A stretch of 64,000 bases of DNA, from assembly GCF_963676685.1 (NCBI RefSeq), contig NC_092344.1, forward strand, positions 64,790,001-64,854,000, written 5' to 3'. Each line of letters opens with the position of its first letter. The stretch's first letter is position 1. The position numbers were made by a program, and so were the translations under genes. Origin of the DNA: Mytilus edulis (taxonomy: Eukaryota). This document shows positions 24,447 to 56,523 of this stretch, piece after piece. Below the pieces are notes generated by a model. The model did not search any database and had not been told where the DNA came from. It was given only the letters and a program-made list of their open reading frames with translations.

Positions 24447-25754
24447 ATGAAGGCACTGCTTATTCTGCTCATAATTCTCCCTGTAAACGCTGTTTTATAT
24501 TCTGACGGAAAACGTTTGAACGAATATCTATTAGCGAATTACTCAAGACGTTTACACCCTAGAATCAACCTTAGCGAATCAGTTACAGTTATAGTTGATC
24601 TTTTCTTGAACTCCGTCGTCGATTTTGATGTTTTAACTGGAATTTTGACGTTTGCAGGAACATTTTCATTATCGTGGGACGATGAACAAATTGGTACGAG
24701 ATGGAATAATTCTGAATTCAGTGAGATTACCAAGACACAACTAAATGTACATGAAGTATGGGTTCCGAAGCTTTATATTCGAAATATGGTTGAACAAACT
24801 TCAATCTTTCAGTTCAGCAGCACATTTGATAGTGAGTCAACATTTGTATCATTTTCGCCAAATGGAACAGCTAGGATAAAGCTTGTTACAGTCCTTCAGA
24901 TAAGTTGCACCACGGATATTACATTTTATCCGTTAGATCAACACAAATGCGATCTTTCAATCATTACGCTCAACTTTAACAGGACCGTATTACTTAGAAC
25001 GTTGTTGACTACAATGTTAAATATGCACACCGTTGAAAATTCTGAATGGACTATATCCTCTTCAGTATATAGTGGCATTTCAGCAGGTCCGTTTTCGGAG
25101 CCCATATATGAATTAAATTTCACTCGAAAACCATACTTTCTGGTTCTGAATTTAGTTTGTCCATCTATTATTATATGTACAGTAAATAGTTTATCATTCT
25201 TGATACCAGTAGCATCAGGTGAGAGATTGTCATTCTGTGTCAGTCTTCTGTTAACATACATTGTTTTCTTAACAACTGTTTTAGACAAACTACCACCAAC
25301 AGACACAGTGTCTTTGTTTAATATTTTTTTGTTAGTACAACTTATTTATAGTAGTTTGACAGTCTTTGGAATAATAAAAACACTTGAATATTATCATTTC
25401 GAAGGCAACACAGTTGTCCCAGTTGCATACAAAAACATTGTTAGATTTGTACTTCGTTGCAACTTTAACTTGAAGATTTCACCGAACACGACGACTACGG
25501 CAAAAACATTAACTGAAAACCATTCTTCTTTTAGCACATATAAGAACAATGATGAAAACAAAATGAATCTTACAAGCGGAGACTTGAAAGATAATAAGGA
25601 TGACACAGCGGATCTGGACAGTGACTACGACAATATTGCATGGCGAGACGTAGCAAGAGCTTTAGACAGGATTATAAATATAATAGCTACATCTGTTGTT
25701 ATTTTGAACCTGATTTTGTTTTTGATAATAATGATTGGATTACATACAGAATGA
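24447..25754 (+). CDS. Intronless Cys-loop ligand-gated ion channel subunit (nAChR-like, non-alpha, divergent), copy 1
   Basis: Signal peptide from ATG 24447 (MKALLILLIILPVNA; the ORF is open from 24375), VWVPKLYIRN, Cys-loop CTTDITFYPLDQHKC, ENSEW, RKP-M1, M2 SGERLSFCVSLLLTYIVFL, M3, WRDVARALDR-M4. Confidence 0.93.
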   Translation: MKALLILLIILPVNAVLYSDGKRLNEYLLANYSRRLHPRINLSESVTVIVDLFLNSVVDFDVLTGILTFAGTFSLSWDDEQIGTRWNNSEFSEITKTQLNVHEVWVPKLYIRNMVEQTSIFQFSSTFDSESTFVSFSPNGTARIKLVTVLQISCTTDITFYPLDQHKCDLSIITLNFNRTVLLRTLLTTMLNMHTVENSEWTISSSVYSGISAGPFSEPIYELNFTRKPYFLVLNLVCPSIIICTVNSLSFLIPVASGERLSFCVSLLLTYIVFLTTVLDKLPPTDTVSLFNIFLLVQLIYSSLTVFGIIKTLEYYHFEGNTVVPVAYKNIVRFVLRCNFNLKISPNTTTTAKTLTENHSSFSTYKNNDENKMNLTSGDLKDNKDDTADLDSDYDNIAWRDVARALDRIINIIATSVVILNLILFLIIMIGLHTE

Positions 25755-27747
25755 TCTGAAGCGCAAAGAGGGGTTTTGTATCATACACTAGATTTTCTTT
25801 TAAATGTCTTAATAATTAAACAAAATTCAAAATGATTATTTTTTTTAAAATTTAATTTAAAATATGTTGATCTGGGTGTATCATGTTAAGGATGGATTAG
25901 GAATAAATCTAAATATTATCGAATAATTAAATTTGGATATGATTGGCCATTCTACAGATAGACTGTAAATCGGTACTAATAAGCACACTTTATGGAGGAC
26001 TTGGTTGTGTAACCATATGAAGCTTAATTCATACAGAACCTTCTTAAAGACATAGAAAATGTCATCTGCTGAGTCCTTTAATTTCATTTTGAGATGTATT
26101 AATGATGTTCTATCACTCAATAACCAAAACTCCTGAAAACAAAATTTGGAAAATTTCTTCTTCTGGTACGCATTTTTTATTTGTCCTCCATATTTTCTTT
26201 TAACGCAAACTTATAATTAAAGTCATGCCGAAGTTAGAGGACGCCTTTGTTTCGCTACTTTTGTTTTTGCAGATTTTTTCTTTGCAGTTTTATTGCTACC
26301 TTAATTAACATTTTAACGATTTATTAGATATTAATGTCGGAACTTAATTGTGCTTACATGTATATCAAATAAATGCAGAATGTTTATATTGTTATACACA
26401 AAAAAGAAATAAATATTTTTCAACATTTAACTGTCGGAAACCACATTTGTGGATTTTTTAAAAATATTTTACTGGAGGAAACCATATCTGTGGAAAAAAA
26501 TCTGACTTGATACTAAGAATCCATGATGAATGTATAGAACCGAAAATTGGCAAAGCTGGTAGAATCTTGAGAATGTCGAATAGCTAAAAAATGAGGGCTG
26601 ATTCTAGTTTTAATTCATAACTGTGTATTGCGGTTGGATAAGTTTTTAACTTGAGAGTCTTTTCTTCAGAACTGTCAAAAATTGCTAATACAAAGCATGT
26701 TTTAAACAGTCATAGACCAGTTCTGTTTTACGACAGAACTGTCAGAATGAAGTATGGTGTCGAATTTGAATGATCAGCTGTAGAGTAAACTGTAAATATC
26801 AGTTGCAGAATTGTTTAGATTAAGGCAACAGTTGTAAACTGATGTTTAAATGTAGTAATAAAAAATTCTTGAGCTGTCAGATTTTGTTCTTAATTATAAC
26901 AACAATTTTAATTCACGCAATTGACGATACACAGAAGGTAAAAGGGCAGGTTTTTAGATTAATTTGTTATTCATTTATCAGAAAGAGTAAAAAAATCAGA
27001 AAATTGTTAACAGCCTTGATCGTATATACGCTATTTTCTCGAATATTGTTTTCCAAAAAAAAGGAAAATGACAAAAAAAAAAGTTTACCTTACATTAAAC
27101 CATATTTTGATATTCATAATGTATAAACTAGAATTTAACTTTTTGTAAATTAAAATATCACTTAATATGTGTTGATTTGCTGTTATGAAAACCTATGGCT
27201 CGCCATCTAGTCTTGTCGAGAAATAGGACTACATACTATGAATTACGTCCCTTTATTTCATTTGCTGGAAGCGTACTAATTTTACTCCAAAATACTTCAG
27301 TCTGGGAGAACATGATTTATTTATTAGTTGTAATTGGGTTTGAAATAACTTTAACTAACTGTGATTAATGTTATATCTGCATTTTATTGCTTTTTCTTTA
27401 TGTTTTTTATCTTTTGTTTTTCTGCTGATTTGTGAGTGAAACCATATTTTACCATTTTCCAAGGTTATGGGATAGATGACAAATATATTAACCCTAAAAT
27501 ATTATGTACGTGTCTGTCCCTTTTTTATATATATAAAATATGTGCACATTCTTATAAAAACGCTAAATAACATATGATTAAAAGTAACAGCGTTCAACAG
27601 GAATAGTTTGTTTTTGTTTATATTAGTATTAACTTAAAATTGATATGATTGATGAAATACAATAACTAAAAAAATATTTGACAGGAAAAAAATGTTTAAA
27701 TCTGTGCTAAAAATCAAACTGCGAGGATCTGTTTTCATGTGCAAATA

Positions 27748-28010
27748 AACTCATCATAGATACCAGGATTGAAAGTTTACATTTACGCCAGACGCGCGAT
27801 TCGTCTTCAAAAGACTGATCCGTGACGCTTGAATAAAAAAATGTTAAAAAGGTCAAATAAAATACGAAGTAGAGCATTGAGGACCGAAACCTTCTAAAAG
27901 TTTTGCCAAATACAGCTAAGGTAATCTATTCCTGAGGTAAAAAAGCCTTAGTACTTAAAAAATATCATCATTTTGTTAATGTTAATTTATAATTATGAAC
28001 ATATCAATGA
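27748..28010 (-). mobile_element. Hammerhead-bearing repeat copy (degenerate core)
   Basis: Minus strand of 27785-27828 reads gcgtca-CGGATCA-gtcttttgaagac-GAAT-cgcgcg-TC-tggcgt; flanks match 18847-19046. Confidence 0.65.
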
Positions 28011-28639
28011 AGTGGAAGCATCAGTTTTTCTATGGTATGATAGTCCAAATCTTTTAAAACACTTTTTTTTCTTGTGAACCGCTTTTGAGAGAAAAAAAAC
28101 CCTGTTTTTGGCTTTAACAAATTTTTATCTTTTTAATGTACATGCAAGGTAAAACATACGACCTAACACTAATCATAATATCTTCTTTGTATAAAAGAAA
28201 GTTAGTATATGAATCTTCTAATGTAAAACGGATGGTTTAAGACGAGATAATTAATTTTCATTAATCCAATTATACTTAAGAATGGAATTTCATCCTGATG
28301 AGACATAGAACATGTAACAGCAGTTATCACATTATTTGTAGTCTGCAAGTATGGATTTTTATTATAAAACTCTAGAATAAACTATATATCTAACAGCTTT
28401 TCATTGTTCGTTCAGAGAAAATGTATTTGTTGCGTGTGAATATTTGATATTGTTTAATACACACGCATATACAGTTTCATTTTAATTGCCATCACATGTT
28501 TTTGTCATAATCATTTCTGATACAGAAGGTGTTATTTCGGTAAGAATAATTATTATGGTTATTCATATATAATTTTTTTTTTATTACATCATAATATATA
28601 ATTATTTGGGGGAACGTTATCTTCGAAACATTTAAACAT

Positions 28640-28945
28640 CAGATATGTTCCTTATGTCATAACTACAATCCCGTTTCCTATTCACGAATGTTACCTACCG
28701 AATAAGACCATTTACCCGGTTTGTAATAACCATAGTTACACGACGGGTGTCACATGTGGAGCAAGATTTGCTTATCCGTCCAGAGCACATAAGACCACCC
28801 CAGATTTTGGTGTGGTTCGTGTTGTTTATAGTCTTTAATTTTCTATGTTGTGTCTTGTGTACTATTATTTGTCTTTTGTATTTTTTTAGCCATGTTTTTT
28901 CATCTATGAGTTTAGCTGTTCCTCTGGTATCTTTCACCCCTCTTT
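28640..28945 (+). repeat. Penelope-like 3' tail copy
   Basis: Reverse complement of 19090-19420. Confidence 0.7.
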
Positions 28946-29224
28946 TAAACCTATGTCATGCAATAAGGTACAAAATACATGCAATATGACAAATAAGACA
29001 CTAATCATCTTCTAATTTAAACCAAGCCGTGTCACAGAGAGATTCATGTCTATTTTCAATTACATCGAAGTCATGTGAAAGACATTATAAATATAGTTTA
29101 AGTAATAGTAAAAGCTCAATGATAAGTTAATATTGATATTGAAATAGTCATACAGGTATTATTTGTTAAATAAAAAAGTATTTGAGAGTTGCTACTCCAG
29201 AGATGTGGCAAACCCCATTTATTT

Positions 29225-29263
<39 letters not shown>

Positions 29264-37175: not shown

Positions 37176-40100
37176 ATGATTTTCATTTTGTTAGTATTGA
37201 TAGCAGCTACACATTTTGCTACAGGTTAGTTTAGAAAAAAATATTATTCCGATATTAAATTTATATATTTACACAAAAAGTATTGTTTAGAAATAACGAC
37301 CTTTTAATGCATAAATAGGTCATAATGAACTATAACATTTCTGTAATAATTTTAGAAAAATAATCATGGCATTCTATTCAACTGTCATACAAGTAAGAGG
37401 TTTAAAAGAGAGCTATAAAACCAGGTTTAATCAGTCATTTTCTATAAAAGGAAGTGCCAATACTAAGAGAGGAATATGACAGTTGTTTTCTATTTGTTTG
37501 ATGCGTTGACCTTTTGATTTAATCATTTGATAAGAGACATTATGTTTTGAATTTTCCTTGGAGTTTGTAATTTTTGTAATTTTGTTATCAACACCTTTTG
37601 GAATAAAAAAAAGTATTTACTTCTGTGGTTTTTGTTTTTGTTTTTGTGTTAGTGTTTTTTTCTCATAATTATTGTTTGAATTCAGGCAATTGCAAACTGA
37701 TTTATTTTTATTATAGCTTGTATCCATTTCATTTGAATTTTTGTCTCCTTAAAATTATATATATTTTTACGAGAAGTATGTAGCTTTAAGAGAGCGTGGT
37801 ACTTTTGATTTAAAGTCCCTATTTCGACCGGATATTACAGAAGATTCTTTTAGTCCGCACAGCCAAATAGAAACTAGAATGTAGAAGGGGTTTTACTGCC
37901 TGAAAATATGCCAATACTCTTTTGATAATGTCATTAAAGGTAAAATAACAAAAATGCTGAACTGTAAGGACAATTCAAAGCAAAAAGACCCTTATTATTC
38001 ATAATTGATCTGGTTATGTATAAACCTTTTTATAAAAGTAATACGTATATATCTTTCGATTGAGATAACCGATATAAAAGAAAATACACACTAATAATAT
38101 GTAATATTTTCAAAATATGCTTCCATTCATATTTTTTTAGGATGGAATCGTTATTACCATCGAAATTATTATTACAACAACTATGGTACAACTGAAATGT
38201 CAACAGGACCTACAACAGAAGATACTAGTAATAGTTCGGTTACTATGAATCCCTTTACGAACGGTACATTTACTACTGAAATGACAACAGGACATACAAC
38301 AGAAGATATAAGTGCTAGTACAGTTACTATGAATCCCTCTTCTATTGGTACTAGTAATTCGAATTATATGACAACAGGACATACAACAGAAGATATAAGT
38401 GCTAGTACAGTTACTATGAATCCCTCTTCTTTTGGTACTAGTAATTCGAATTATAAAATACCAGTAACTATTCGACCAAGAAAAATTGGTTAGTATTATG
38501 TGTATGTTAACAACTATTTCTTATCTTTTTCTTTTCAATTTACTAATTAAAGATGGTAAGGATTACAGGGAACAATTATAAATTTGCAAAATTATCAACA
38601 ACATGTAAACTAGTTCATGAGTGTGTGGAAGAAACAATTTCTTCATGTCAAAATCACGACGAGTCATGTGGTTAAAGAACCCAATGTATGTAAACAAACT
38701 CTGAATATAAAAAAAAAATAAATAAAAAAAATAAATCTTACGAATCATTTGGATATAATGAAACTGCAGTTTGAAACTAAACGACAGAAATTTTAGATAA
38801 AAGATGAGGAGACAATTCCCATAGGACTGGTGTAATACCACCATTTATTTGCTCATATAAGTCTTTGTTAATTTTGCAATTTTCCTAAACATGTGCTTAA
38901 TGTATCTTTGTTTCAAATCAAGAAATACTAGTTAAGGGTAGAGTTTTATCCCATCCAGTACTACGGAAAAAATGTCACATAACATTTCATTTCATTAAAA
39001 ATAACAACCATCACTGGAAGTTATACAATCAAATTTTCACTCCTTGTATAACTGTGTACAAGCTTTAGTAATTATGTAACCTCAAGATTCCAAAATATTC
39101 TATAGAAACAACAATTAAAAAAAAAGAACAGTGCTGTGAAACAACAATATTATATGTTTATGACTTAGAAAATATTTTCTGCAATGAAATGTAGTATTAA
39201 TTTCATACAACAATCAAATTCAAGAGAATATTTTTTTTCGACCTTTGGTCGTATGCAACCAGATATGACGTTCTATGAAATGGTTGTATTACACATTCAT
39301 GTGCTTTACACCGAAGCCGTTTTCCTGCTACTAAACCATATAGGGGAATTCCTAGCACATTCCCTTAAAAAGTATATTTGAGTTTTTTACTCTTATATTG
39401 AACTAATAGGAAACAAAATTATTAATGCAAAACATGGTTTGTTTTTTTTTAAATTAAAAAAAATTCGTTGTCTTTATTTAGAAGAAGGATGTTACACAGA
39501 AATGACATTCCACATAATTTGTGTAACTCAAAATTATTTTTCCCGATGAATTGCCAATTGAGTGGTTCTCGTAGTGTTATTAATTAAAACATGTCATGTC
39601 ACATCTAAATTTTTTGATTGTCTATATTTCAAAAACCTTTAGGATGTGGGAAGAAGGGAGACATAATATTTGTACTAGATTCATCTGGCAGTGTAGGAAC
39701 ATCTAACTGGAAAGTTATGCTGAAGTTTGTGCAAGATGTCATCAATATTTTTACTATCGGTAAAAATGATGTTCAGGTTGGGGTTGATATCTATGCTAAT
39801 TCTGCTTCTACACGCATAAGGCTGAACTCTTACCAATCAAAGACACAGTTAATGGATGCTGTGAAACGTATTTCCTATACTAATGGTGGAACAGCTACAA
39901 ACCGGGCGATACATCATTTGATAAGCAGTAGTTTTTCGTCGTCACATGGTAATTAATTTATAAATGATTAGAGCTCAGAAACTTCATTTATTGTTTTATA
40001 TTTGATACGTTTCCCTCAGTTTTAGTTTGTAACCCGGATTTGTTTTCCTCTATCAATTTATGAATTTTGAACAGCGGTATTCTTCTGTTGCCTTTATTTG

Positions 40101-43100
40101 TTTAAAACTAATGGTTTCAGCTACGTCTTTTAAATAAAACAAAAAATGATTCATTTCACTTCAGTTTTGAAAGTAATTTATTGCATTGATTATTTTTGCT
40201 GTGGTCGCATCATACGTTAGTCATCACCTAAATTATATTCAAACTACATGTAGCTAAATGAAAATATAAATACTCAATTAGTTTTTAAAATCCGTTAAAA
40301 ATAAAAGACTGATAACATTGGCAAAACATGTAAATCACTGAATGCTAGTATTGTAATCATAAGAAGAGTATGAACTTTTACAATGTAATACGATACTAAT
40401 TCATTGAAACTTTTGTTCTGATCTTCAGGTAGCCGGGTTGGAGTCCCGAAGATTGGCATCATATTAACAGATGGCAGATCGAATTCACAATATTCAACAA
40501 TATCTGCTGCCAACGCCGCCAGAAGGAAGGGAATCGAGTTGTTTAGTATTGGAATCGGTAGTAGTGTCAATACTATAGAACTGAAAGGAGTAGCAAATGA
40601 TCCAGACAGTATGTTTTACTTCAGTGTCCACAATTTCAAAGCGTTGCAGTCAATTGGGAGTAGATTAGCCTCAGAAACATGTCAGAGTATGTAAATATAC
40701 ACAAAGTTAATATTGATATTTTAAGATTTAACTGCTCTTTATGTAAAAGCGAAATTGTGTTTTTTATTTCCTTATAAAAATCATAATTACTTATGCACTG
40801 AATCTAATCTCGTTTGTGTTGTGTTTGAAATTGGGTTAAGAAAGTAACAGACCGAGTTTTATTCATATTTAGATATGAAGCGAAATATACTTCATAGCAC
40901 TTTTTGTGTGTGATGCTCTTGAACGTTTATAATTTTTGTTTTTGATTCTCGAGCTTGACTTGATGATTGTTGTTCACGGAAGGGGTCTGATGTGATGCGC
41001 ATATACTTTATTTTATAATTATCACTTGTTGTATACAGAAGCTTTAGTTCTGAATATAACAAAAGAGTGGCGAAAGATACCAGAGGGACAATCAAACTCA
41101 TAGATAAAGAAAAATGTGTCCCCTGTACACGGATGCCCCACTCGCACTATCATTTTTTATGTTCAGTTGACCGTGAAATTTGGATCAAAACTCTTATTTG
41201 GCATTAAAATTAGAAAGATCATACCATAAGGAACATGTGTACTAAGTTTCAAGCTGATAGGACTTCAACTTCATCAAAAACTACCTTGACCAAAAACTTT
41301 AACCTGAAGAGGAACGAACGGACGAACGGACGAACAGACGAACGAACAGACGGACGGAAGAACGGACGTACAGACCAGAAAACATAATACCCCTCTACTA
41401 TCGTAGGTGGGGCATACAAAAACTGACAACGACATGGCTAAAAATGAAAAAGGCAAACAGACATATAATAGTACAAAAGATACGACATAGAAAACTAAAG
41501 ACTAAGCAACATGAGCCCCACCAAAAATTGGGGTGATCTCATGTGCTCCAGAAGGGTAAGCAACTACCCCTTAAAAGAGTAAGTGCTATATTTTCAAGAA
41601 TGTATATTAGATTTTTCTTCTGTATCATTGAACACATTTACCATAATTAATACTTAACAAAGTTTCTCAATAGTTTTTAACATCGTTTCACCTTTTGTTT
41701 GGATACAGTGTATACATTTTGCACGAATATACATATTTATGTATAAATTGAGCGGTTGAAGATGATGTTAATGATAATTCAAAAGTTATTCAATGAAAAG
41801 CCAACAGTAAACTTTACATAAAAAAAAATCAATACTTATATTTAAAAAAATAATAAAAATTATGATAATTATAATTTCATTCGTTTAAACGGGCAGTGCA
41901 TTAGAATGAAATTAATTTCTCCTGGGTGTTTCATCATATGTAGCATAGAGGGCGTAATGTTTTCCCGCTTCAAAATTATTTTCGCAGTATTTTATTGCCT
42001 ATGTAATCATTCAGCACGACATCGTCAATCTGAGCAGTCGAATGTTCTTGGTAAATTTTAATTCTGGTTAAAGTTTATTAAGCTTTTATTTGGAGAATTT
42101 TTGTTTGATACTGATGTTTGAATTATATATTATATGTGGAGATATATATGTATGAATTATGTTTATTTCTTATTAAATATAGAGCATCGGCGTTGTCGTG
42201 CGACTATCCACTTTACAAAGTCTTTGGTATTTATTATAGCCTTTTATGGCGTGTATATTCAGAGTGTATATGTATGCTTGGATATTTGGTACAAGTATTG
42301 GTTATACTTGGATATTTGGTACAAGTATTGATTATACTTGGTTATTTGGTGCAAGTATTGGTTCTATGTCTACATTGATGGGTGGTTTATACCAGGAGAA
42401 TAATAAATCTAATGATTACGATTTTGTTTCAGATCTTGACCCGATAATTGGTAAGTGTTTTCTTTTCATATATATGATTACAAACATTTTGAATCATTAG
42501 ACACATTTTATATTCCAAGTGTTTCATCTTACTGGAAGCTTCAACGTGATTCATGGTGATAGTAAATTAAAACAAGAACAACGTCACTATGTAAAATTTT
42601 ATTTTCATTATAAAACACCACCCTTGGAATCAATTATTTTAACAGAAGAAAAAAGAGAATTGTCAACACATGTCATAAATTGAATTTATTAAATCATCTC
42701 TTCGAAAAGAGTACAACTTTTATCTTTTAAGCTGTTATGAGTTTGATAGTTGTAACCTTAATTGGGATATGCTTGAAAATATTTGTCATCTTAGTTTTAT
42801 TAAGTTTCCTCTTATTAAAAGGTTGCAAAGCTGGTGCTGATATAGTATTCCTCGTTGATAATTCTGGAAGTGTTGGTTCAAGCAACTTCAATACCACCTT
42901 GATGTTTATTTCTGATATTGTTAACGGTCTAAATATCGGCAAAGAGAAAGACAAATTCCAGTTGGGAGTTCTAACATTTCATACTCCAGTAAAGGCAGAA
43001 TTTAATCTTGACGAATATCAGGATAAACAAGACATACAGAAAGCCATTATGGAAATCACATACGAAGGAGGTGGTACAAATACAGGAGGAGCTATTAAAT

Positions 43101-46100
43101 ATTTACACACAACAGCATTCTCGAGGACTTCAGGTATAGTTGCTTTTTCTAAGCAAACCATGATCTTAATCATTTTCAAAATGATCGTGTAATTGATTTT
43201 AATTTCATGTCTTTTCCAATTGTATATAAATTAAAAAAAAAGGTTTGAATGAATGATTTATTTTCTCACAAACCATATATATATAATCACATGATTAATA
43301 AACAATCAGTTATAGTTGTTTAAACAAGAAGATAGACTTTCACAGAAATATATTTGACAAATCTACACAGTTTCTAAAGTTCAACAGAATTTTGGATTGA
43401 ATATACTTGTTCGGATTGGGTATCATTCTCTATTTGACATTCGTTAAAGTGCTCTTGATTGATATTCTTTTTAACAAAAAATGACAATGCTTTAATTTTG
43501 ACATATTTTGTTTCTATTACAAAAAGAAAAAGATGAATAATTTAATGCAAAGATAAGCAGCAAATCAACACCAGTTTAAAAAATATGTAAATAACGGAAT
43601 TGAGCCGTTATTATTGTTATTTGGTTATACTTTTAGTACTCACGTAAGAAACCGTTAATGTTATCAAAAGTTCTAGGCTTATGATTTAATACACCAGACG
43701 CGCGTTTCGTCTACATAAATCTCATCAGTAACGCTCAGTTCAAAATAGTTGTAAAGAGCTAACAAACTGTAAAGATAGCACACCATGATTTGGTCAGAGT
43801 TATTTAGAATATTTCAAAACTCCTACAGACAAAAGTGAGGTATATTGTCACCTAATCAATGTTTGTATGCACCATTTATTAGCATTATGTTTTCTGTTCT
43901 GTGCGTGTGTTCGTCTGTTTGTTCGTCCGTCCGTTCGTTTGTCCGGCTTTCTCGCTTCAGGTTAAGGTTTTTGGTCTAGGTAGTTTTAGATGAAGTTGAA
44001 GTCCAATCAACCTGAAACTGAGTACATATGTTCACTATGATATGATCGTTTTAATTGTAATACCATATAAGACTCTTTACCCCGTTTTCAAGGTCCACTG
44101 AACATAGAAAATGATAATTCGGTTTGGGCATCCGTTTACTATGGACACATTCTTGTTTATCATGTTTTTACCTGAGTTTGGATTAAACACTCAAATTGAA
44201 ATGAAATTGTGAAAATTGGGACTTGCATGCATTTATTTCATATTTATGTTACATTTTCGTTTTATTTTCGTATCAGGGCATAGACCTGGCTATCCAATGA
44301 TTGGAATATTAATAACAGATGGGTATTCATCAAACAAGGCAGAAACTCGAAAGGAATCAATGAACGCCCGGTTGAAGGGCATCAAAATGTTTTCCATAGG
44401 AATTGGTAATGCCATTGACACGACGGAACTTGAAAGTGTTGCTAGCGAACCAAAAAGTCAGTTTGTTTTCACTGCTGCAAGTTTCAAATTATTGAAATCT
44501 ATTGAATCATTATTGCTGAGTAAGACATGCGAAGGTACGTGTTTAAATGATATGAAAATGTTTACATATTTGCCAGTCTATCAGAAGATGAACTATATGT
44601 CAAATCAACTACTAATATGTGTTGTTTCAGAATCCGAAATACATATACAAAACAAATTAGATAATTAAGTTAACTAATTTTTTTTATTTGTAGTAGATAA
44701 AAAAGTGCAAGCGTCGGTAATTTTTTAATATACTAAAAGTTATTAAGATCTCTGTAGTTCAGATATCATTAGCATAGTTAAACACTTATGCTCATGAACC
44801 GATTGAAAGTTAAAACAAAATCAAGGAGCATTGAAAATAGAAGCGTCAATTTGCATCTGAACGTGATCTAATATAATTGAATTAAAAACATTAAGTTTTT
44901 CTTAGTGTTGGAAAAGTAATTTATATTCAGATTTTTAACTCAAGCTGGCTGTTGATTCAGATTTATTTGGTCACTTTTAAGCATTGTGGTTCTAGTGTTT
45001 ATCTGAAAAAGACTCGAAGTTGAACAATAAAATTATAGAAGTGTCAACTAATGTGTTCACTTGATTGATTTATTATAAATTGGACAATATTAATTTTAGC
45101 ATTAAACAAAACGGCAAAACGATCGAAATAAACATTAAATTTAAAACGTTTATACATTGTTTCATGAAGGGTATTTTTGAATAGCCAATCATAAACTATA
45201 TTTAAAATTCATGCCTGATTCATTTAATTTCAGTTGCTGATATCAGTGAGTATTCATAAATTATAATAATGAAACAATTGCATACCGTTGAAACTTATAA
45301 AACAAATGGTTTTCAACATGACAAAAGGATGTCTTTAGCTGATAGACAAAATGTTTACAGCCAATCAGAAGATGTGTTAAGCCAAAATTAAATAATTGGC
45401 TCGTTATTCCGGAAACTCAATTGTAATCAATTGCACACATGTCATATGCATGGTATATAATAGATGTGAAAATAAAATGTATTCCAAATTGTTATTAATT
45501 TACCCTTCTGATAAATTTAGACGCACAAAATGTATAAATTTTATACTTTATTCTTTTATTTTTTCAAGTGATGCACATTAATATATGTAAGACTTAGTAT
45601 TGTCTTTCGATTCAGCTTGTTGGGGGAAAACAGACATTGTATTTCTACTCGAGGATTCCTGTCATATCGGAGAGACGAATTTCAATAAAATGTTACAAAT
45701 GGTTATAAACCTTGCGGAAGAAGTCCCAATTGGTAACGGAAATATTCAGATTGGTGTCAATACTTTCAAATGTACTGCTAAATCAGAATTTGTACTTGGA
45801 AAGTACAAAACTGGAAATGATATCATCAAAGCTGTCCAGAGAATTAAATACACAGGTGGAAAAGTGTCTATTGGCAAGGCTATTGAATACACCAGAAAGA
45901 ACAGTTTTCCAGGTCTTTATTTAACTCATCTATAAAGAGCTATCTGAACTTTATGTAATTTAACTCTTTAACAAGACATGATCTCAAAATGCATTAGGGA
46001 ACAACATGTATAACATAATATTTGAATTCCGAAGCAACTATTAATTTATCATTTTGTATTTCAATTTATATCATTAAATGTACTTTTTCTAAATAGAAAT

Positions 46101-47087
46101 ACACATTTGGTTCATATTGGCAAATTATCATTCCTTTCCAATTTTTTTTTGCAATATCGTAATTTCTACATTACTAGTTCGATGAACAACTAAACAAATA
46201 TATAAGCGGACATATTGATGACTGTTGTACCCCATATTTTAACCATGTCATACTTTTAAAAATGCCGATACCAAGTCAGGAATATGACAGTTGTTGTCCA
46301 TTCGTTTGATGTGTTTTATCATTTGATTTTGCAATTTGATTAGGGACTTTCTGTTTTGAATTTTCCTCAGAGTTCAGTTTTTTTTTTACTTTACTTTTTT
46401 CAGATTTGTTAGTTCGGACAAATGACACAAATTAAACTTAATTCTTAATTATAACTCTTGAAAATTATGCTTTCTTCTTATAAAAAGAAATTGTTGATAA
46501 CAATTTTCTTTTTTTAAACAGAAAATCGCAGTAAAGCGAGGAAACTGATGATTATTCTAACAAATGGATCTGACAAGGCTCTATCAAAAACACTAGGAGA
46601 AGCCCAAAAAGCGAGAAACAGTAACATAAAGATTATGGTAATAGGAATCGGCGATTATACCCATCAAGATTGTCTCCAGGGAATGGCAACAGTACCGCAT
46701 GATAAATACGTATTTTCCCAAGACAGTTTTGATCCTCTGAGAAATATGAGAGATGTTTTAATACAAAGAAAATGCTCTGGTGAGTACTAGAACTTATCTG
46801 TCTTTCCCATTGACATATTTTAACAGCTCTTAAATACCTACAAATCTGTTCACCTAAACAAAGGTTACACGTATTCGGAACATTGTACGAAATATAATAT
46901 GCTTATATATATACCAAACACATGCATCGGTAAAAAGGTTGATATAATTTTCATTGATTGGAATCTTTTTAAAAAAAATTTTAAAATCTCCAATGTTTAC
47001 AGTCGTGTTATTAATCACTGGTATATTAATCATAATATAATGCTATATATAATCTGATTTTGACATTTTTCTTTTATTTCAGCATAG
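37176..47087 (+). CDS. Secreted protein: signal peptide, Tyr-rich N-terminus, Thr/Ser-rich repeats, three von Willebrand factor A domains (matrilin/collagen VI/PTMP-like vWA), 706 aa
   Basis: Exons 37176-37224, 38141-38488, 39643-39948, 40429-40686, 42433-42450, 42822-43133, 44277-44534, 45234-45245, 45616-45912, 46522-46779, 47083-47087 (GCA TAG). All introns are phase 1 GT-AG; total 2121 nt = 707 codons. vWA motifs: DIIFVLDSSGS...ILTDGRS, DIVFLVDNSGS...LITDGYS, DIVFLLEDSCH...ILTNGS. AATAAA at about 47139. The donor after 45912 (gtcttt) is weak. Confidence 0.87.
38197..38454 (+). repeat. Coding tandem repeat (one 84-bp and two 87-bp units) encoding a Thr/Ser-rich mucin-like spacer
   Basis: 38281-38367 and 38368-38454 differ at one base (MTTGHTTEDISASTVTMNPSS[I/F]GTSNSNY); 38197-38280 is a more diverged unit. 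Confidence 0.9.
41060..41562. mobile_element. Penelope-like tail fragment interrupted by a nested HINE-like element (~41108-41420)
   Basis: gcgaaagataccagagggacaatcaaactcatagat resumes as aaactgacaacgacatggctaaaaatg after an insert with a tgtgtcc..tacacggatgcccca hairpin, a (gacg/gaac)n microsatellite and a cccctctac..gtaggtggggcata end. Confidence 0.8.
42279..42362. repeat. 30-bp tandem repeat (about 3 copies) gatatttggtacaagtattg.ttatacttg
   Basis: Directly visible. Confidence 0.85.
43691..43734 (-). ncRNA. Minimal type I hammerhead ribozyme motif, best-preserved copy (intact CUGAUGA/GAAA core, weakened stems)
   Basis: Minus strand: gcgtta-CTGATGA-gatttatgtagac-GAAA-cgcgcg-TC-tggtgt, with a palindromic stem III (cgcgcg) and a GUC cleavage triplet. 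Confidence 0.65.
43870..44158 (-). mobile_element. HINE-like element, inverted relative to 41108-41420
   Basis: cattatgttttctg...(gtcc/gttc)n...ttcaggttaaggtttttggtc.aggtagttt...gggcatccgtttactatggacacattcttgtt is the reverse complement of the 41108 copy. Confidence 0.78.
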
Positions 47088-49397: not shown

Positions 49398-50862
49398 ACG
49401 AAAGAGGGACAAAAGATACCAGAGGGACATCAAACTAAAAAATCGAAAATAAACAGACGAATTCATGGCTAAAAAAAGACATACAGACAAATAATAGTAC
49501 ACAAAACACAACATAGAAAACTAATGACTAAGCAACACGAACCCCACAAAATACTGGGGTGATCTCAGGTGCTCAGGAAAGGTAAGCAGATCCTGCTCCA
49601 CATTTGACACCCGTCGTGTTGCTCATGTTAATTCAAACCCGGTAAATAGTCTAATTCGGTAGGTAACATTCGTGAAAAGGGAACAACGATATGTGGTCAA
49701 CTAACGTGTGATGTCTTCCGTAAAATTTACGATGGGATGACTTCAACTTAACCATTTGGAACTCTTGGTTTTATAGCTTACTCGTGAGCAGCAACCCCTT
49801 ATCAAGGAAATCATGATAGAAAATACAAGCCCAGGAATATTATATCAATAAGGAGATATATACTCCGTATGCAGGCGCTGCTGCCCTCATTGCCAATTTC
49901 TAGATGTAAGTCAAGTTATGAGACAGACTTATTTGTATCTGTTGTATACTTTATCTCTAGTTCGATGGGATAGATGCTTTTAACATAGTCACCAAATTTT
50001 GAATATTCAGTGAGAGAAAATCAAATATATAGCAGGAAAGAAATGTTTAATGATATTGCTAACTTCTTTTGTTTCTTCCTGAGAAGTTCTTGTATGTAGC
50101 CAGCCTAATAGAATAAAGGAACAAATCGGCAAGAAGAGGGTATAATTGGTTTCTCATAGGAATGACGATATTTTATTGGAAAATACGTCCTCCAAACGTA
50201 ACAAATATGTTGTCTAACAAGAAATCAAGCATCTTGATAATGTCAGTTTCAGAGATTTTTTTCTTTTAATCAGATTGATTCTTTACATAATAGATTAATC
50301 CTCCATATACAAGATACTTGTATCTAGGTAGGCCATTTTTATGAAACAAAGCAGTACCAACTCTTTCAATTTGTCTTTTAATTTGGAATTGGGAATACTT
50401 GTGTAAAGTGTAGACAAGTCAAATGATTTAATACTATTGCAAGATGAAAGAGTCTTAGATTGTATGTACTCTAAAAGATCTTTGGAATTTTTAATATCCA
50501 AATTTGATTCAGGCCACCTCAAGAGTAGGCAGTTTCACAATACCATTGAAGCTCGACTACGATTGCTGATAAAATAGATGTTAATAATTTAGAAAGAAGT
50601 TTATTGGAGTACTTGGAAGACCCAGCAATACACAGTTGTTTGTCAGGACACTTATGTAGTTTAGGTACCCAATACAGCGATGTAAGTTCTTCATCTTCGG
50701 TTGAAATGCCAAAGGAACATATAACAGACCACGATTTCCTCTTTGGTATGTGTCGTGGGGGTATATATTGAGTTTCCATGTGAATTGTCAATATCTAATT
50801 CATTTATCATGCAGTTTATGTAATTAGATTAACACATAAAAACGATGTTGTTAAGGGCTTTA
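49398..50862 (-). pseudogene. Decayed Penelope-like retroelement (RT domain remnants and 3' tail)
   Basis: ORFs 50519-50791 (LYWVPKLHKCP..Q..IAGSSK.S.K.LSKLLT) and 50295-50522 (NSKDLLE...SIKSFDLSTLYTSIP..KLK) are PLE RT motifs; MLDFL.DNIFVTFGGR.FQ remnants follow, with frameshifts and stops. Confidence 0.85.
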
Positions 50863-52271
50863 TACAAATATAATGCGTAATTCAAATGTTTTCTTTGTTT
50901 TCAATATGGATCAGTTGTCTTATAAGAGAAAACCAAAAATTTACAAACAAATAAACAAACAAAGAACATGCAAATTTACCCAACCGAACTCAGAGTACTT
51001 GAAATGAAGCAAGACTGTTTTACATACTCTAATAAAGGGAGGTTTTATACAGCAGTATCTTAATATCATCATATTATATTGACCACACGCTTAACTCTGA
51101 ACTATACAAGAACCAATTACAAGGAGTATATGTAAGTAGGTTTATTCGTCTGGTATTTAATGTTCGATTGTAAAGTTTAATGCAGCATTTTTAATGTATT
51201 CATATTACAAACAAGCATAAGATTATTCAAAATAATTCCTATGAATATTTACATTATAACAAGGTGTTAATTTACTTTAGTTGTTGCAATTTTGGTATTT
51301 GCTTTATTTGTGAATTGACAAGTTAAACAGTTTATACAGGAATTTGATGTTTGACTTGCATTTGTCTTTCAATTATATTGTATAACTTGATTGATTCATT
51401 TATTAATCCATTTAAACCATATGCGTTTTAAAAAGATGTCTTGGAAAATAATATTGAGGATGTTACTTATGTCATCTGTGATCGTTTGTTTAGTAAAATA
51501 CACTTCGAAAAATAGTAATCCGGGTCACAAACTAAAGTCATATGACACTTCAAATTAATAAAAAAAAAAATGTTTTTATTTTTTATACGTGAATGACCAT
51601 GTTTTACTATTAAACAGGTGCACATGAACATATTGTTAACGATATTAAGCTGTTTTAACACAATTATGACCTCGTAATGTTCAGAATCAGTTCTTAGATA
51701 TAACTGTTTAGAATATTTCAAACTGTTAAAAGAACACTTCTTATTAACTTAAATAAAAGCAGCTATATGAACGTGAGAACAGAGTCCGCTGGGTTTTCGT
51801 TTACTAGTATTTGTAATAATATTTAGGCCATGAGAAGTATCTGAAAATTACGGCAACAGTAGTATACCTGTGTTCAAAGGACATAAATCTATTGAGAGAA
51901 AACAAATCGGGGTTACAAACTAAAACCAAGGGAAACACATCAACTATAAGAGAAATATAAAACGAACAACAGGAACACTGTAGTGAACCAAAAAAAACCC
52001 AACCCAAACCTGTAAGTATTAAGCAAAAATAAAACATTATATTTAGATAAACTCTTATACAGGTCAATGAGCACCATGGTGATGTAAATTATGGTTAAAC
52101 GATTTGGATTACACCAGACTATACCATCACACATAAGTGCGTTTAAACAATGTAGAAAGAAAATTAAGAAAACAAAAACTCATGAAGAAATATAATATGT
52201 TTTACTTACAACAATGCAATTATGATGCATAAGAAATAAAACAAATATTTAATTGATTTAAGAAGTATTAT

Positions 52272-52338
52272 TAGTTATCAAAGGTACCAGGATTATAATT
52301 TAATATGCCAGATGCGCGTTTCGTCTACATAAGACTCA
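52272..52338 (-). repeat. Truncated hammerhead-bearing repeat
   Basis: Minus strand: TGA-gtcttatgtagac-GAAA-cgcgca-TC-tggcat...cctggtacctttgataact; the CTGA half of the core is lost at the junction. Confidence 0.65.
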
Positions 52339-52367
52339 AGTATGAAACAGATGGAAGTGTTAGGACA

Positions 52368-52803
52368 GGGAGGCATTGGCATGCCACAAAACCAGGTTTG
52401 ATCCACCATTTTTTCCTTTAAAAATGTCCTGTACCAAGTCAGGAATATGGCAATTGTTATATTATAGTTCGTTTCTGTGTGTGTTACATTTTAACGTTGT
52501 GTTTCCGTTATGTGGTTTGTTCTCTCTTATTTTTGAGTGTGAATTCACATTACTATAAGACGTGTCACGGTACTCATGTATCCCAAATTCATGTATTTGG
52601 TTTTGATGTTATATTTGTTATTCTCATAGGATTTTGTCTAATGCTTAGTCCGTTTCTGTGTGTGTTACATTTTAATATTGTGTCGTTGTTCTCCTCTTAT
52701 ATTTAATGCGTTTCCCTCAGTTTTAGTTTTTTACCCCGAATTTGTTTTTTGTCCATTAATTGATGAGTTTTGAATAGCGGTATACTACTGTTACCTTTAT
52801 TTA
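52368..52803 (+). mobile_element. SINE-like interspersed repeat, same family as 34380-34797
   Basis: Colinear high similarity along its length. Confidence 0.72.
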
Positions 52804-53989
52804 GGACAAGCGTAATCAGTTGTAGTGTAGAACTGTAAATCTTTCAAAAAGGGCAGTACTGCCTCTTGTAGAAACTGTTTAAAGGAGCCAGAAAAACTGT
52901 TTCACATGTAATATTAATAAGATGTGGCATGATTGACATCCGCTATAAAAAAAAAGTTCCAATAAAGGGGATGTGAGCAATCAGACAACCGTACGACCTT
53001 CAGTTGTGAGAGAATACCATACCGTATAGTGGTCTATAAAAGACTGTTCTTAAACATTTTAAAATAAGTTACTTTTCTAGATACTTTGAAAGTACTTTGA
53101 TTTGTGGGTTATAATTTTTTTTGTGTCAGCAAAAGTTGCATAATCGTAGGTTATTCAATTCGTGGACTTTTTTTTATTAATAACAATAGTGAAAACGTGA
53201 AGCCTTAAATAATCAAGATTCTTTAAAATAATCAAATCTTGTTTAATAGTGATTTGTGTCACATTAAAAAAAAGTGACGTGTTCGTCTTTCATTACTGAC
53301 AACATTTATTAACATTTTTTTTAAACTTCTGCCTTCGGTAATTAGGTGGCTCATGTATGTGTGTAAATTGTTTCGATCGGGAAAAAAATGCAGAATTAAC
53401 ATTTTAAATATTACACATGTGTAATCAGAGGTGATTACCAGAGATCAAAATGTTCAACAAATTAGCTATCATTTAAGTCGTTCATTTCGCCAATGTTAAA
53501 TTGAAATATACTACAAATATACTTCAATATCGTAAAATATATGCCTGTGAAATAAAACAACAGCTTCTCTTATCGTCACCGGTGAAAACTAATTTTACAC
53601 GAGAATTAAAAGTCTAAAAGTTTTTTGAAAGATTAAAGGAGTAAACAAAATAAGATTATGTTCAAGTATTAAAAAGGTCAAACCTACATGTTGATCCTTC
53701 CATGTCTTGATTTGGGCAACAGTTTTTCTTTTTTGTAGGACACTTAAATTCGTGGACAAATTCCATGGAAATTAGGAAATCTGGTACCCAACGAATAAAG
53801 ATCCTTCTACAGCCTTTTTTTAAGAGACGTTAGAACTTTTCTCAACTGTTAAAAAATTATTATACACGGTGATTTTATCTGAAACAATTACTTTAATCTA
53901 ATGTTGTGTTTTCATATAAATTGACATCTACATTTTCTAAATTTCGTACATTTATTTTTCTATTATTTAGACATTGGATTGTCTCTTAA

Positions 53990-54763
53990 AGATGTATTCT
54001 TCAGACTTTTCAGTCTCGTTCAGTCTCGTTGAAATCTCGTTCTGGAATTATTTCCAAAACGTGTTATCCAAGTGGAAAATATCAATGAATTTTAGAAATA
54101 TTATAATCGAACATAACTCTATGAAAAAAATTGTGTATTCACAATGAATGGTTTTTAAGTAATCAAGTTTTCAAATTTTACGACCAATCAAGTCAGTATT
54201 TTAGCCAAATTTTGAGAAATGGGTTAGGGATACAAAACATGATTTTACAAGAATCATGTACATCCCATATCATTTTGGTCTTTTCAATTTTCTTAGATAT
54301 GTTTTTTTTCAATCATTTATAACAAAAAAGTTTAAATAATATGCATTTTGTTCTTAAAACTGGGAAAAATCACAAAAATACAAAATTGACAGCATGGTAA
54401 ATTTTACACAAAAAAGCGTCAAAATTTAATAAACATTTCTTATATTAACACCTTCCTATAGTTTTTTTTTAAGTAAAATTTATTCAGATTGGTCCACTTC
54501 ATCTTTATAGAAAGTATGAAAAAAATTTAAATGTGGAACTGTGATTTTTTTCACGAAAATAGCCCAAAAATAGGTAAAATTTGATGAAAAATGGGAAAAT
54601 CATCAAAATTGAGCATTTTCAAAGGACCGTAGCAAAAAAAGAAGTGCATCACCGTATGATTTTTTTCTTCACTAATTATTTTGTTAGTCTTATAAACCCA
54701 AAAATCAGGTTAAGAAAAAAAGTTTAATTCTCGAAATTTTTGGCTTCTCAGAGGTGTACATTA
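53990..54763 (+). mobile_element. ~770-bp non-autonomous TIR element with TTAA TSD, copy A
   Basis: TTAA|agatgtattctt...gaggtgtacatta|TTAA; colinear with 56836-57589. Confidence 0.8.
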
Positions 54764-55209
54764 TTAATGTCCTTAATTACGAATCCATTATTTTTACTCT
54801 ATTTTATTGTTATGATAATTCTTGTGCTATTTTAGCTAACATCGCTGGTTTCAATCACTCTCAAATTTCCGTTAATTATTCTATAGTTAATCAATTAGTT
54901 TTCTTTGTTTTTGTGACGACAGTTATCAAATATTGTCTATGTGATGTGAGTAGTGAATTAACAGTTAAACTACTTTAGTAAACACCAGGGGACAGCAATC
55001 AATATTGACTAATGGTATCTGAATGAAATAATTGCATTGAAGTTATACGCTGTTGTCAATCGACTTAGTTTCATCCTATTTCATTTGCCATCTGTTTTAA
55101 AAAAACAGTAACCACAGATTAATATTACTAAGAGTTATATAATTATCGCCGCACTGTCCTTAGTTACAACATATTAATTCTGGACATTCAAGTTTTTTTT
55201 ACTAGAAGC

Positions 55210-56523
55210 ATGAATGTACTGCTATTTGCGTTCGTAATTACTGCAGTAAAGGCTGCTTCATATTCTGACGAGAAACGGTTAAAAGAGTATTTGCTAGCCA
55301 ATTATTCAAGAGGTGTGAAACCAAAAACTAATCTAAGTGAATCACTTACAATAATTGTTGATCTTTACTTGAACTCAGTCATCGACTTTGATGTTATAAC
55401 TGGAATTATGACCATTGCTGGAATATTTTATATAACATGGGAAGATGAACAAATTGCTACAAGGTGGAACAATTCGGAATTCTCTGATATCGCTTTGACA
55501 CATTTTCATGTACACGAAGTATGGGTTCCAAAGTTATATATTCGGAATATGGCGGAGGAAACATCAATTTATCAGTTTAGCAGCACGTTTGATAGTGAGT
55601 CAACATATGTAACGTTTTTTCAAAATGGAACAGCTATAACAAGTTTAGTAACTGTCTTTCACACAACGTGTAACACGGATATAACAAATTACCCTTTCGA
55701 TAAACATACATGTGATATAACAGTTATTCCACGGAACCTTTTCAGTTCCCTTATTCTTGAAACGTCAGTTACTTCCGTTTTAAATGAGTACACAATTGAA
55801 AATTCTGAATGGAGTGTATGTTCTGCAGTTCAACAGGACCTTTTAGGTTCAGTATCGAACGTCAATTTTGTTCTATACTTAACTCGTAAACCATATTTCC
55901 TGGTTCTGAATTTAGTATTACCATCTATTATCATATGCACAGTTAATAGTTTATCGTTCTTGATACCAGTAGAATCAGGTGAGAGATTGTCATTCTGTGT
56001 CAGTCTTCTGTTAACATACATTGTTTTTTTAACAACTGTTTTGGACAAACTACCTTCTACAGACACGGTGTCGTGTTTCAATGTATATTTGTTTTTACAA
56101 CTTATTTATAGCAGTTTTACAGTCTTTGGAATAATAAAAACTCTCGAGTACTATCATTACGATTGCAAAAAAGTCGTTCCTATGTCATACAAAAACATAG
56201 TGAGATACTTGCACAAGTTCTTGTGTTATGTAAAAATTGCACCAATCAAAACGATAATGGTGACGACAAAATCATCAAAAGAAGATCATTCTCCTTTAGG
56301 CAATAGTCAGAACGTTGACGAAGACAAAGGAAATCACCAGAAGAGGGACATGACAGATTATGACCATAAAGAATCATCAAATAATCTCTGCAATGGACGT
56401 CATCATACTACATGGCGAGATGTAGCAGAGACATTAGACCGGGTTCTCAATATGATAGCTATAATTGTTGCTTTGTTTAATTTCATTGTGTTCTGTATAA
56501 TCATGATTGGATTGCAAAATTAA
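55210..56523 (+). CDS. Intronless Cys-loop ligand-gated ion channel subunit (nAChR-like, non-alpha, divergent), copy 2, 437 aa
   Basis: Signal peptide MNVLLFAFVITAVKA, VWVPKLYIRN, Cys-loop CNTDITNYPFDKHTC, ENSEW, M1-M3 nearly identical to copy 1, WRDVAETLDR-M4. Confidence 0.93.
   Translation: MNVLLFAFVITAVKAASYSDEKRLKEYLLANYSRGVKPKTNLSESLTIIVDLYLNSVIDFDVITGIMTIAGIFYITWEDEQIATRWNNSEFSDIALTHFHVHEVWVPKLYIRNMAEETSIYQFSSTFDSESTYVTFFQNGTAITSLVTVFHTTCNTDITNYPFDKHTCDITVIPRNLFSSLILETSVTSVLNEYTIENSEWSVCSAVQQDLLGSVSNVNFVLYLTRKPYFLVLNLVLPSIIICTVNSLSFLIPVESGERLSFCVSLLLTYIVFLTTVLDKLPSTDTVSCFNVYLFLQLIYSSFTVFGIIKTLEYYHYDCKKVVPMSYKNIVRYLHKFLCYVKIAPIKTIMVTTKSSKEDHSPLGNSQNVDEDKGNHQKRDMTDYDHKESSNNLCNGRHHTTWRDVAETLDRVLNMIAIIVALFNFIVFCIIMIGLQN

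Follow-up and report, generated by a model that had tools for sequence, protein, structure and literature searches.

Bivalves carry 100-200 nicotinic-like genes, nearly all of which are orphans. The intronless nAChR-like genes of these animals have been treated by Jiao et al. 2019 (PMC6896357), and according to the sections of that paper drawn on here, nAChR-gene expression is highest in gill in all bivalves studied, the oyster gill is without ChAT, the genes are expressed ahead of nervous-system formation and react to stress as well as to infection, the full principal site is found in only 13 of 132 oyster genes, and a wider ligand range together with an environmental response is proposed. 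In the gill of another mussel, nAChR domains are enriched; gill enrichment is, however, a result for the whole family and not for the long-linker clade described below. Octopus CRT1 gates despite lacking both the acetylcholine (ACh) cage and the β1-β2 Glu, and its affinity is reduced by polar substitutions at L153. Loop C of CRT1 is short. In lophotrochozoan GluCls, the loop-A Arg can coordinate carboxylate. Vertebrates possess accessory nAChR subunits (α5 and β3), and the serotonin site of 5-HT3 uses a loop-D Trp, a loop-A Glu, and a loop-B Trp. Finally, in the portions of the respective reports considered, the annelid orphan Alpo4 (PMC10338036) responded to no ligand tried, and ZAC (PMC13036004) opens in response to Zn2+, Cu2+, and H+, its zinc site requiring two aromatic residues.

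The two genes under study lie on the forward strand of the analysed window, a stretch of 64,000 nucleotides of Mytilus edulis DNA. Gene 1 (A-type; 24447..25754; 435 amino acids) and gene 2 (B-type; 55210..56523; 437 amino acids) are both real and intact. Each is an uninterrupted ORF for a single-exon Cys-loop channel subunit, where single-exon refers to the coding exon and leaves room for introns in the UTRs, and each contains the Pfam ligand-binding and transmembrane domains above the curated cut-offs. In gene 1, an upstream ATG at 24375 is also in the open frame; the signal-peptide-like start is that at 24447. The 13-residue Cys-loop (Cys-X13-Cys) and the cation-type M2 (G-E-R at -2'/-1'/0', Leu at 9') that had been claimed in the first-pass annotation are found in both genes. 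The AlphaFold model of gene 2 (pLDDT 77) matches nAChR chains with a Z-score of 28.6 and an rmsd of 2.8 Å over 343 aligned residues. The ligand-binding domain with Cys-X13-Cys, the four transmembrane helices, and the fold, the latter taken from the gene 2 model alone, are those of a pLGIC; an ESM Atlas search led to the generic domain family only. With a single coding exon, a tandem array, lineage-specific paralogues, and a degenerate site, the pair belongs to the bivalve intronless nAChR-like expansion.

The coding region of gene 2 is covered by contigs in four of four runs, at a depth of 2-5 and mostly with 0-7 differences per piece, the runs having been chosen for containing gene 2 and their RNA nature being a guess, with DNA possible. 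Among the 24 runs considered, 18 were merely guessed to be RNA, and none carried a tissue label. The unique sequence flanking gene 2 (53134-53669 and 54876-55009) is uncovered in the same four runs, and no splice joint is present at a candidate acceptor upstream of the ATG, where two contigs read through; neither blank carries evidential weight.

The M2 pore helix is located at 25221..25286 in gene 1 and at 55981..56046 in gene 2, with identical residues (-1'E, 2'S, 6'S, 9'L, 13'V, 16'T, 17'T, 20'D). Glu at -1', the lack of a Pro-Ala anion motif, and an acidic 20' ring are the sequence characters of a cation-selective pore. The codons at 25212..25268 of gene 1 and at 55972..56028 of gene 2 (codons 255-273), which span the M1-M2 loop and M2, include a 54-nt run identical in both genes. 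This is likely a gene-conversion tract, and the similarity of the two genes in M1-M3 is partly due to gene conversion. Conversion confined to gene 2 was rejected, since the identical run joins gene 1 with three of the five B-type copies; a fourth B-type copy has an overlapping run of 56 nt identical to gene 1.

Pocket positions were read from alignments to human α2 and α7, and also to 5-HT3A. The replacements initially reported for loops A, B, and D are borne out by the α2 and α7 alignments: in loop D, W55 is Thr (gene 1) or Ile (gene 2); in loop A, D89 is Lys and Y93 is Arg in both genes; in loop B, W149 is Leu in gene 1 (Cys-loop and loop B, 24906..24971) and Arg in gene 2 (55669..55734). 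Loop C, reported as devoid of the vicinal CC and about six residues shorter, indeed lacks CC and is shorter than that of α7 by six (gene 1) or seven residues (gene 2), with Y188 deleted in both genes and Y195 replaced by Phe (gene 1) or Val (gene 2). A complete loss of the aromatic box, as was claimed for both, thus applies to gene 2 (five of five residues); in gene 1 the loss is four of five, Phe remaining at Y195. Without the vicinal CC and with Y93, W149, Y188, and Y195 all changed or deleted, the genes do not qualify as nAChR α subunits, and because the complementary-face Trp (W55) is also lost, they are not ordinary β subunits either. The 5-HT3 site is likewise missing from gene 2, in which the loop-D Trp, loop-A Glu, and loop-B Trp correspond to Ile, Asn, and Arg. 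From the loss of the cage residues, it is a well-supported prediction, in line with the original proposal, that both genes encode ACh-insensitive cation-channel subunits of the bivalve intronless expansion.

Loss of the cage does not single out the window genes, because all 80 intact single-exon relatives in the same genome have a degenerate cage (loop-C CC in 0/80, loop-A Tyr in 0/80); Arg at W149 is restricted to the type of gene 2. These 80 relatives remained from 96 matches, 16 of which had no intact frame of at least 360 amino acids in the fetched stretch. An extra ten-residue segment after loop A had been described as a feature of the pair. The linker between the loop-A Trp and the first Cys is in fact longer than in α7, albeit by seven residues and not by ten (49 versus 42), and it is common to 32 of the 80 relatives. 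HMMER puts six α7 residues inside the lengthened segment, so that the extra residues are split 4+3. Loop A with the lengthened β4-β5 (Omega) linker is found at 24759..24842 in gene 1 and at 55522..55605 in gene 2, for which a short helix is predicted at residues 126-131 (pLDDT about 73-75).

The linker measures 49 residues in all 32 clade members, despite an identity of only ~25%, versus 41-44 residues in all 48 other relatives, and the loop-B Trp is present in none of the 32, versus 42 of the 48. Loop A of the clade has Lys at D89 (28/32) and Arg at Y93 (21/32), Trp is absent among the six commonest residues at the W55 site of loop D, and an acidic -1' residue, 9'L, and 13'V are each found in 32/32 pores. 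The clade, comprising at least 32 single-exon genes, received an SH-aLRT support of 100 in the tree of the 80 genes; in a FastTree analysis of 185 rows, the long-linker group forms one side of a branch with a support of only 38%. A cluster look-up for 30 representatives gave the organism for four clusters (oyster and two scallop species), none of them long-linker. The gene expansion, the residue loss, and the sensory hypothesis have already been published; it is only for the long-linker clade that no description was found in the literature searched.

The two genes are no special pair, as they had been presented, but the first two of nine copies in a 271-kb array in a Mytilus genome. Four further B-type copies, 89-91% identical to gene 2, lie just outside the window. 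One array member contains stops, and one B-type copy shows an altered Cys-loop core residue and the loss of one codon. In M. coruscus, both an A-type and a B-type gene are present on one contig, the counterpart of gene 1 (P0005) being 86% identical over the kept columns. Within loops B, C, E, and F, identity to named counterparts from other Mytilus species is 71-87% (seven comparisons), two further cross-type pairs give 79% and 59%, and gene 1 and gene 2 share 42%. The pocket loops are thus conserved from species to species and differ from paralogue to paralogue, a pattern to be anticipated if each paralogue kept a specificity of its own.

Between gene 1 and gene 2, identical residues amount to 2/10 in loop B, 4/14 in loop C, 8/16 in loop F, and 8/12 in loop E, versus 105/158 in the rest of the extracellular domain (ECD), 74/83 in M1-M3, and 15/17 in the vestibule linker. 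The reported divergence of loops B, C, E, and F against a nearly identical M1-M3 consequently holds for B, C, and F, while loop E is not unusual. Selection was assessed partition-wise by Nei-Gojobori counts and IQ-TREE codon models, the partitions being fixed from α7 homology. For seven paralogues, omega rises from ~0.1 in M1-M3 through ~0.2 in the ECD scaffold to 0.48 in loops B, C, E, and F, where omega=1 is rejected downward (p=0.004) in a codon fit with kappa at its bound of 1; for the gene 1/gene 2 pair alone, the loops give a noisy 1.1. A comparison of ECD and transmembrane dN/dS had been suggested site by site; by partition, across the seven paralogues, values are higher in the ECD, and all are below 1. 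By these partition-wise methods no positive selection was found, and of the earlier "diversifying" it is the faster evolution of the pocket loops that stands, under purifying selection.

The reading that we tentatively favour, while placing it somewhat short of probable, is that the two genes, as members of the long-linker clade, encode subunits of cation channels which a chemical from outside, probably a polar or acidic one, opens at a water-facing tissue, for example, the gill. Pentamer assembly, cation flux, and the absence of ACh gating would be in keeping with what is known of the family; the outside origin of the ligand, its polar or anionic nature, and the water-facing tissue may be suggested, if weakly. 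Alignment suggests that the pocket of the clade is polar or basic, unlike the hydrophobic pocket of octopus CRT1, and it is on alignment that the idea of a basic pocket rests. By analogy with Alpo4, it is possible that there is no gating at all. An intronless ancestor would already have been without loop-C CC and loop-A Tyr; the loop-B Trp would have been lost later, in a lineage also containing oyster and scallop genes; the linker would then have lengthened and the genes multiplied by successive tandem duplications, with conversion events spanning M2 from time to time. A more far-reaching version, which we consider doubtful, envisages a mussel family of at least 30 ionotropic chemoreceptors, derived from nicotinic-type channels independently of those of cephalopods. 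Their basic pocket would detect acidic signals from the water or from biofilm (on food quality, bacteria, or settlement), and their Omega-loop helix, specific to the clade, would give the vestibule another shape or let clade members assemble only with one another.

The same anatomy would be expected of channels that open upon a non-cholinergic signal from within the body, such as an amino acid or metabolite, a host-derived haemolymph signal, H+, or a metal ion, and serving ciliary, immune, or developmental control. This alternative, which we regard as unlikely, would accord with the early and the stress- and infection-responsive expression of bivalve nAChR-like genes, with the precedent of ZAC (short loop C; Zn2+, Cu2+, H+), and with the use of a loop-A Arg for glutamate binding in GluCls; yet one ligand poorly explains at least 32 paralogues with different, separately conserved loops, and the zinc site of ZAC needs two aromatics. 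Rather unlikely, too, are accessory subunits without agonist binding that would tune heteromers with ACh-binding α subunits. Both site faces are lost, conservation is highest in the pore and in the vestibule linker, few oyster genes retain a full principal site, and ACh control of gill cilia has been suggested; however, purifying selection acts on the loops, which vary with the type of paralogue, accessory variants by the dozen would be atypical, and an ordinary β role is impossible with the loop-D Trp absent.

Much less probable is homology to the cephalopod chemotactile receptors (CR), with sensing of poorly soluble, surface-bound terpenoids or steroids. The genes are intronless, in tandem, and cage-less, a CR-like clade extends to bivalves according to the literature, both genes have an aromatic residue at the position of CRT1 Y39, and CRT1 is narrowly the best PDB match of the gene 1 ECD (52.7 bits versus 52.3 for α2). 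The clade profile, by contrast, favours α7 (188.6 bits), with CRT1 outside the best 60 of 343 PDB matches; CRT1 is not among the matches listed by Foldseek and VIA for the gene 2 model, which does not exclude kinship. In the CRT1 pocket (Y39, Y58, F124, A152, L153), one of five positions stays aromatic, the rest being polar, smaller, or alignment-ambiguous: Y58 is Thr/Ile, F124 is Val, and L153 is Asn by ungapped count or Leu in the gapped HMMER alignment of gene 1. Close kinship to these receptors was not found in PDB matches or linker, the trees having contained no CR sequence. The first-pass analogy, apt for the lost cage and the missing introns, therefore amounts to convergence at best, given the short linker of CRT1, its rank, and its hydrophobic lining where the mussel pocket positions carry Lys/Arg/Asn. 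Drift of redundant duplicates towards pseudogenes, to which the 16 of 96 matches without an intact frame, the one array member with stops, the one B-type copy with an altered Cys-loop core residue and a lost codon, and the literature on barely expressed intron-poor bivalve genes might point, is already largely refuted for the clade and highly improbable, with omega far below 1 in all partitions, both types also in M. coruscus, and a linker of invariant length.

The clade is sharply defined by its fixed linker, the absent loop-B Trp, the basic loop A, and the near-invariant pore. Because of this definition, of the ease with which its single-exon genes can be cloned, and of its counterparts in several Mytilus species, the clade offers a tractable set for testing Cys-loop channels as bivalve external chemosensors; such a function, if true, would matter for filter feeding, the settlement of larvae, and biofouling.

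With vertebrate α7 nAChR and 5-HT3A, the best PDB matches by profile and by single sequence, respectively, the window genes share fold, Cys-loop, and cation-type M2, their M1-M2 being notably similar to 5-HT3A. Identity is ~23-25%, and because the agonist-binding Trp/Tyr residues are replaced, automatic names (HTR3, as given to the M. coruscus counterpart, CHRNA7, α-type) mislead. Alpo4 of Alvinella, an orphan, and human ZAC, with its short loop C, are nAChR-like and not ACh-gated, but keep key site aromatics according to the parts of both reports used (PMC10338036, PMC13036004). MolluscaGenes (bioRxiv 2026, PMC13174522), in the part considered, presents several divergent nAChR clades in which binding residues are replaced, and puts forward a role in ionotropic chemosensation; the supplementary trees and motif figures for its 15 clades may already include the window genes. 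The genes of Jiao et al. 2019 (PMC6896357) are alike in tandem arrays and degenerate ACh sites, while no clade that combines a lengthened Omega loop of constant size, the missing loop-B Trp, and basic residues in loop A is resolved in the sections drawn on, and Mytilus is absent from the genomes used. Cephalopod CRT1/CRB1 (PDB 8EIS, 9E6B), as far as covered in the excerpted account (bioRxiv 10.1101/2025.10.28.685082), resemble the window genes in being intronless and in having lost the ACh cage, and CRT1 also in the aromatic residue at Y39 and the absent β1-β2 Glu; documented for CRT1 are a hydrophobic pocket, the short linker (42), ligands, sucker expression, and positively selected sites.

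Gene 1 (A-type, 24447-25754) and gene 2 (B-type, 55210-56523) are single-exon, uninterrupted ORFs on the forward strand, and in both products the Pfam ligand-binding and transmembrane domains exceed the curated cut-offs. For gene 2, the AlphaFold model predicts a pLGIC subunit fold (mean pLDDT 77), which matches muscle nAChR chains with a Z of 28.6. The nearest named proteins are those of Mytilus species, including one M. edulis protein at 92% identity. M2 is of the cation type and the same in both proteins (-1'E, 2'S, 6'S, 9'L, 13'V, 16'T, 17'T, and 20'D). ORFs, domains, M2 residues, and the model of gene 2 thus agree with the first-pass annotation of intact, cation-type nAChR-like subunits; the feature is real and was mainly read correctly, yet it falls within a described gene expansion.

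Pocket residues were read from HMMER alignments to alpha2, alpha7, and 5-HT3A, in alpha7 numbering. The W55 position is occupied by Thr in gene 1 and Ile in gene 2, W149 by Leu and Arg, and Y195 by Phe and Val, respectively, while both genes carry Lys at D89 and Arg at Y93. Due to deletion of the Y188-CC tip, loop C is shortened by six residues in gene 1 and by seven in gene 2. The principal and complementary faces are both lost; an ordinary alpha or beta subunit is therefore ruled out. The proposed loss of the acetylcholine cage holds for W55, Y93, W149, and Y188 in both genes, but gene 1 retains an aromatic residue (Phe) at Y195. Val replaces the beta1-beta2 Glu, which is no argument for a dead channel, since CRT1, an octopus chemotactile receptor that gates, has Phe there. 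Overall, the subunits are intact: pore and gating interface are conserved, whereas the binding site is remodelled. At M2 16', all 80 intact single-exon relatives (both genes plus 78) carry Thr or Ser, and 17' is also Thr in a 10-gene subclade containing genes 1 and 2; in alpha7, polar 16'/17' residues reduce Ca2+ permeability and slow desensitisation.

In a search of the 1.37-Gb genome, 96 of 357 candidates, ranked by similarity to gene 2, were scored; as all 96 matched, the genome contains at least 96 matches. All 96 sequences were retrieved, and the 80 with an intact frame of at least 360 aa were kept for later counts, the other 16 being left out. Loop-C CC and loop-A Tyr are absent from 80/80, so their loss is a family-wide rule. 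Nine copies, one of them carrying stops, lie inside 271 kb beginning in the window (six on the forward strand, three on the reverse); genes 1 and 2 are two of these nine rather than a special pair. Seven named M. coruscus matches, apparently on one contig, are consistent with a counterpart of this array. The B-type copy L005 (G000:C1:64896505-64897815) has Ser for Phe in the Cys-loop core and lacks one codon in beta1, and may be decaying. Two elements of a repeat (53987-54760 and 56590-57500; about 88-91% alike, 2.83 kb apart, high contig depth in four runs) flank gene 2 and could have helped local duplication. Between the receptors, a multi-exon gene (38098-46790, forward) encodes a Ser/Thr-rich repeat exon with units of 84-87 nt, then three vWA domains (Pfam VWA), each divided between two exons; the product would be matrix- or adhesion-like. 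A TRIM-like single-exon gene (19998-21941, forward, 647 aa) has a Pfam RING, by eye B-box-like and coiled-coil segments, and a propeller-like C-terminal region. Fragments at 50295-50794 (reverse) resemble, by eye, a decayed retroelement ORF; the tested piece had no Pfam match.

What is new is a sharply delimited clade which, judged by sequence, combines a fixed Omega-loop extension with a basic, Trp-less pocket. In a tree of the 80 genes, built on columns at least 60% filled, 32 cluster together (SH-aLRT 100). The spacing of the loop-A Trp and the first Cys is exactly 49 residues in 32/32, 41-44 in the 48 others, and, as counted on alignments, 42 in alpha7 and CRT1. The loop-B Trp occurs in 0/32 members versus 42/48 of the others; Lys at D89 is found in 28/32 and Arg at Y93 in 21/32. 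The linker, for which a short helix is predicted in the gene 2 model, follows a conserved pattern (Ser in 29/32, an aromatic residue in 31/32, another in 29/32, and an acidic one in 31/32) and corresponds to the Omega loop, described in Brams 2020 (PMC7015668) as lining the vestibule and controlling entry to an allosteric site. The 49 spacing recurs in 39 of 142 database proteins (340-520 aa), and each of the 14 among them that carry an organism name comes from Mytilus; the clade is likely mussel-centred. A FastTree of 185 rows (47 of the 80 genes of this genome, 13 outgroup domains, and the 125 database proteins left once 17 near-duplicates had been removed) places the long-linker group on one side of a branch with only 38% support; the linker likely arose once, though this is not firmly established. 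This group is nested in a 68-row branch (support 95) which includes oyster and scallop clusters and keeps the loop-B Trp in one row; Trp loss therefore likely preceded linker gain. The clade members L017 (G000:C14:7889050) and L018 (G000:C14:7895252), 6 kb apart, encode identical proteins, either because they duplicated very recently or because the assembly holds the locus twice. Distant relatives (P0030, P0031, and, inferred by length, P0035) carry, ahead of the ligand-binding domain, a long N-terminal extension (about 300 aa) of Pro/Thr-rich repetitive sequence.

Genes 1 and 2 share 22/52 residues across loops B/C/E/F and 105/158 across the remaining extracellular domain (ECD), compared with 15/17 along the linker and 74/83 through M1-M3. 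Loops B/C/E/F reach 71-87% identity in seven comparisons with named counterparts from other Mytilus species, and 79% and 59% in two further, cross-type pairs. The dN/dS comparison of ECD and transmembrane region gave, for seven paralogues, omega values of ~0.1 for M1-M3, ~0.2 for the scaffold of the ECD, ~0.4 over all six loops together, and 0.48 for loops B/C/E/F, significantly below 1 in all four partitions; for genes 1 and 2 alone, the last rises to 1.1, from 13 synonymous changes. The pocket loops thus evolve faster yet are constrained, and of the diversification proposed earlier the faster rate stands, but positive selection is not shown across the seven paralogues. Synonymous divergence of the pair drops from 69/145 in the ECD to 16/62 in M1-M3 (p=0.004), and a 54-nt identical run spans M2 (simulated p=0.003). 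The synonymous drop is absent in the unlinked A-type copy. Together, these results point to gene conversion inside the array; the near-identity of M1-M3 noted earlier would then partly reflect homogenisation.

The coding region of gene 2 is covered by contigs of four runs from four studies (depth 2-5; 0-7 differences in most pieces listed). As these runs, presumed to be RNA, were picked for containing gene 2 and bear no tissue label, this is only a weak hint of transcription. By family knowledge, the subunits would form cation-conducting pentamers. Acetylcholine would most likely not open them, because its quaternary ammonium requires an aromatic cage and would face Lys/Arg in the mussel pocket. 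The tentatively preferred reading is that the channels sense external polar or acidic cues at epithelia facing the water. It is based on the large number of paralogues whose loops are separately conserved, on gill enrichment (a family-wide result), and on a precedent in Lynagh 2015 (PMC4338433), where a loop-A Arg binds carboxylate, a likeness taken at the level of the loop. That an internal ligand, H+, or a metal gates the channels is rather doubtful, and a role as accessory subunit is unlikely. Homology to the cephalopod chemotactile receptors (CRs), with sensing of hydrophobic surface ligands, seems improbable from profile ranking and alignment: CRT1 is narrowly the best match for the gene 1 ECD, but the clade profile puts alpha7 first and CRT1 below the best 60 of 343, CRT1 is missing the long linker, and of the pocket residues that a 2025 preprint names for it, only Y39 has an aromatic counterpart. 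Decay of the gene copies is very improbable.

Jiao 2019 describes intronless tandem expansion of bivalve nAChR-like genes with principal-site loss, gill expression, and a possibly wider ligand range. MolluscaGenes 2026 describes clades in which binding residues are substituted and puts forward a role in ionotropic chemosensation; its supplements, which lay outside the search, may include the long-linker clade, of which no description was found in the literature searched. Related work includes PMC10338036, PMC13036004, PMC9957406, PMC5549309, and PMC9993606. The mussel genes resemble the expansion of Jiao 2019 in being intronless and tandem with a degraded site, and differ from octopus CRT1 in the spacing of the clade (49 instead of 42).
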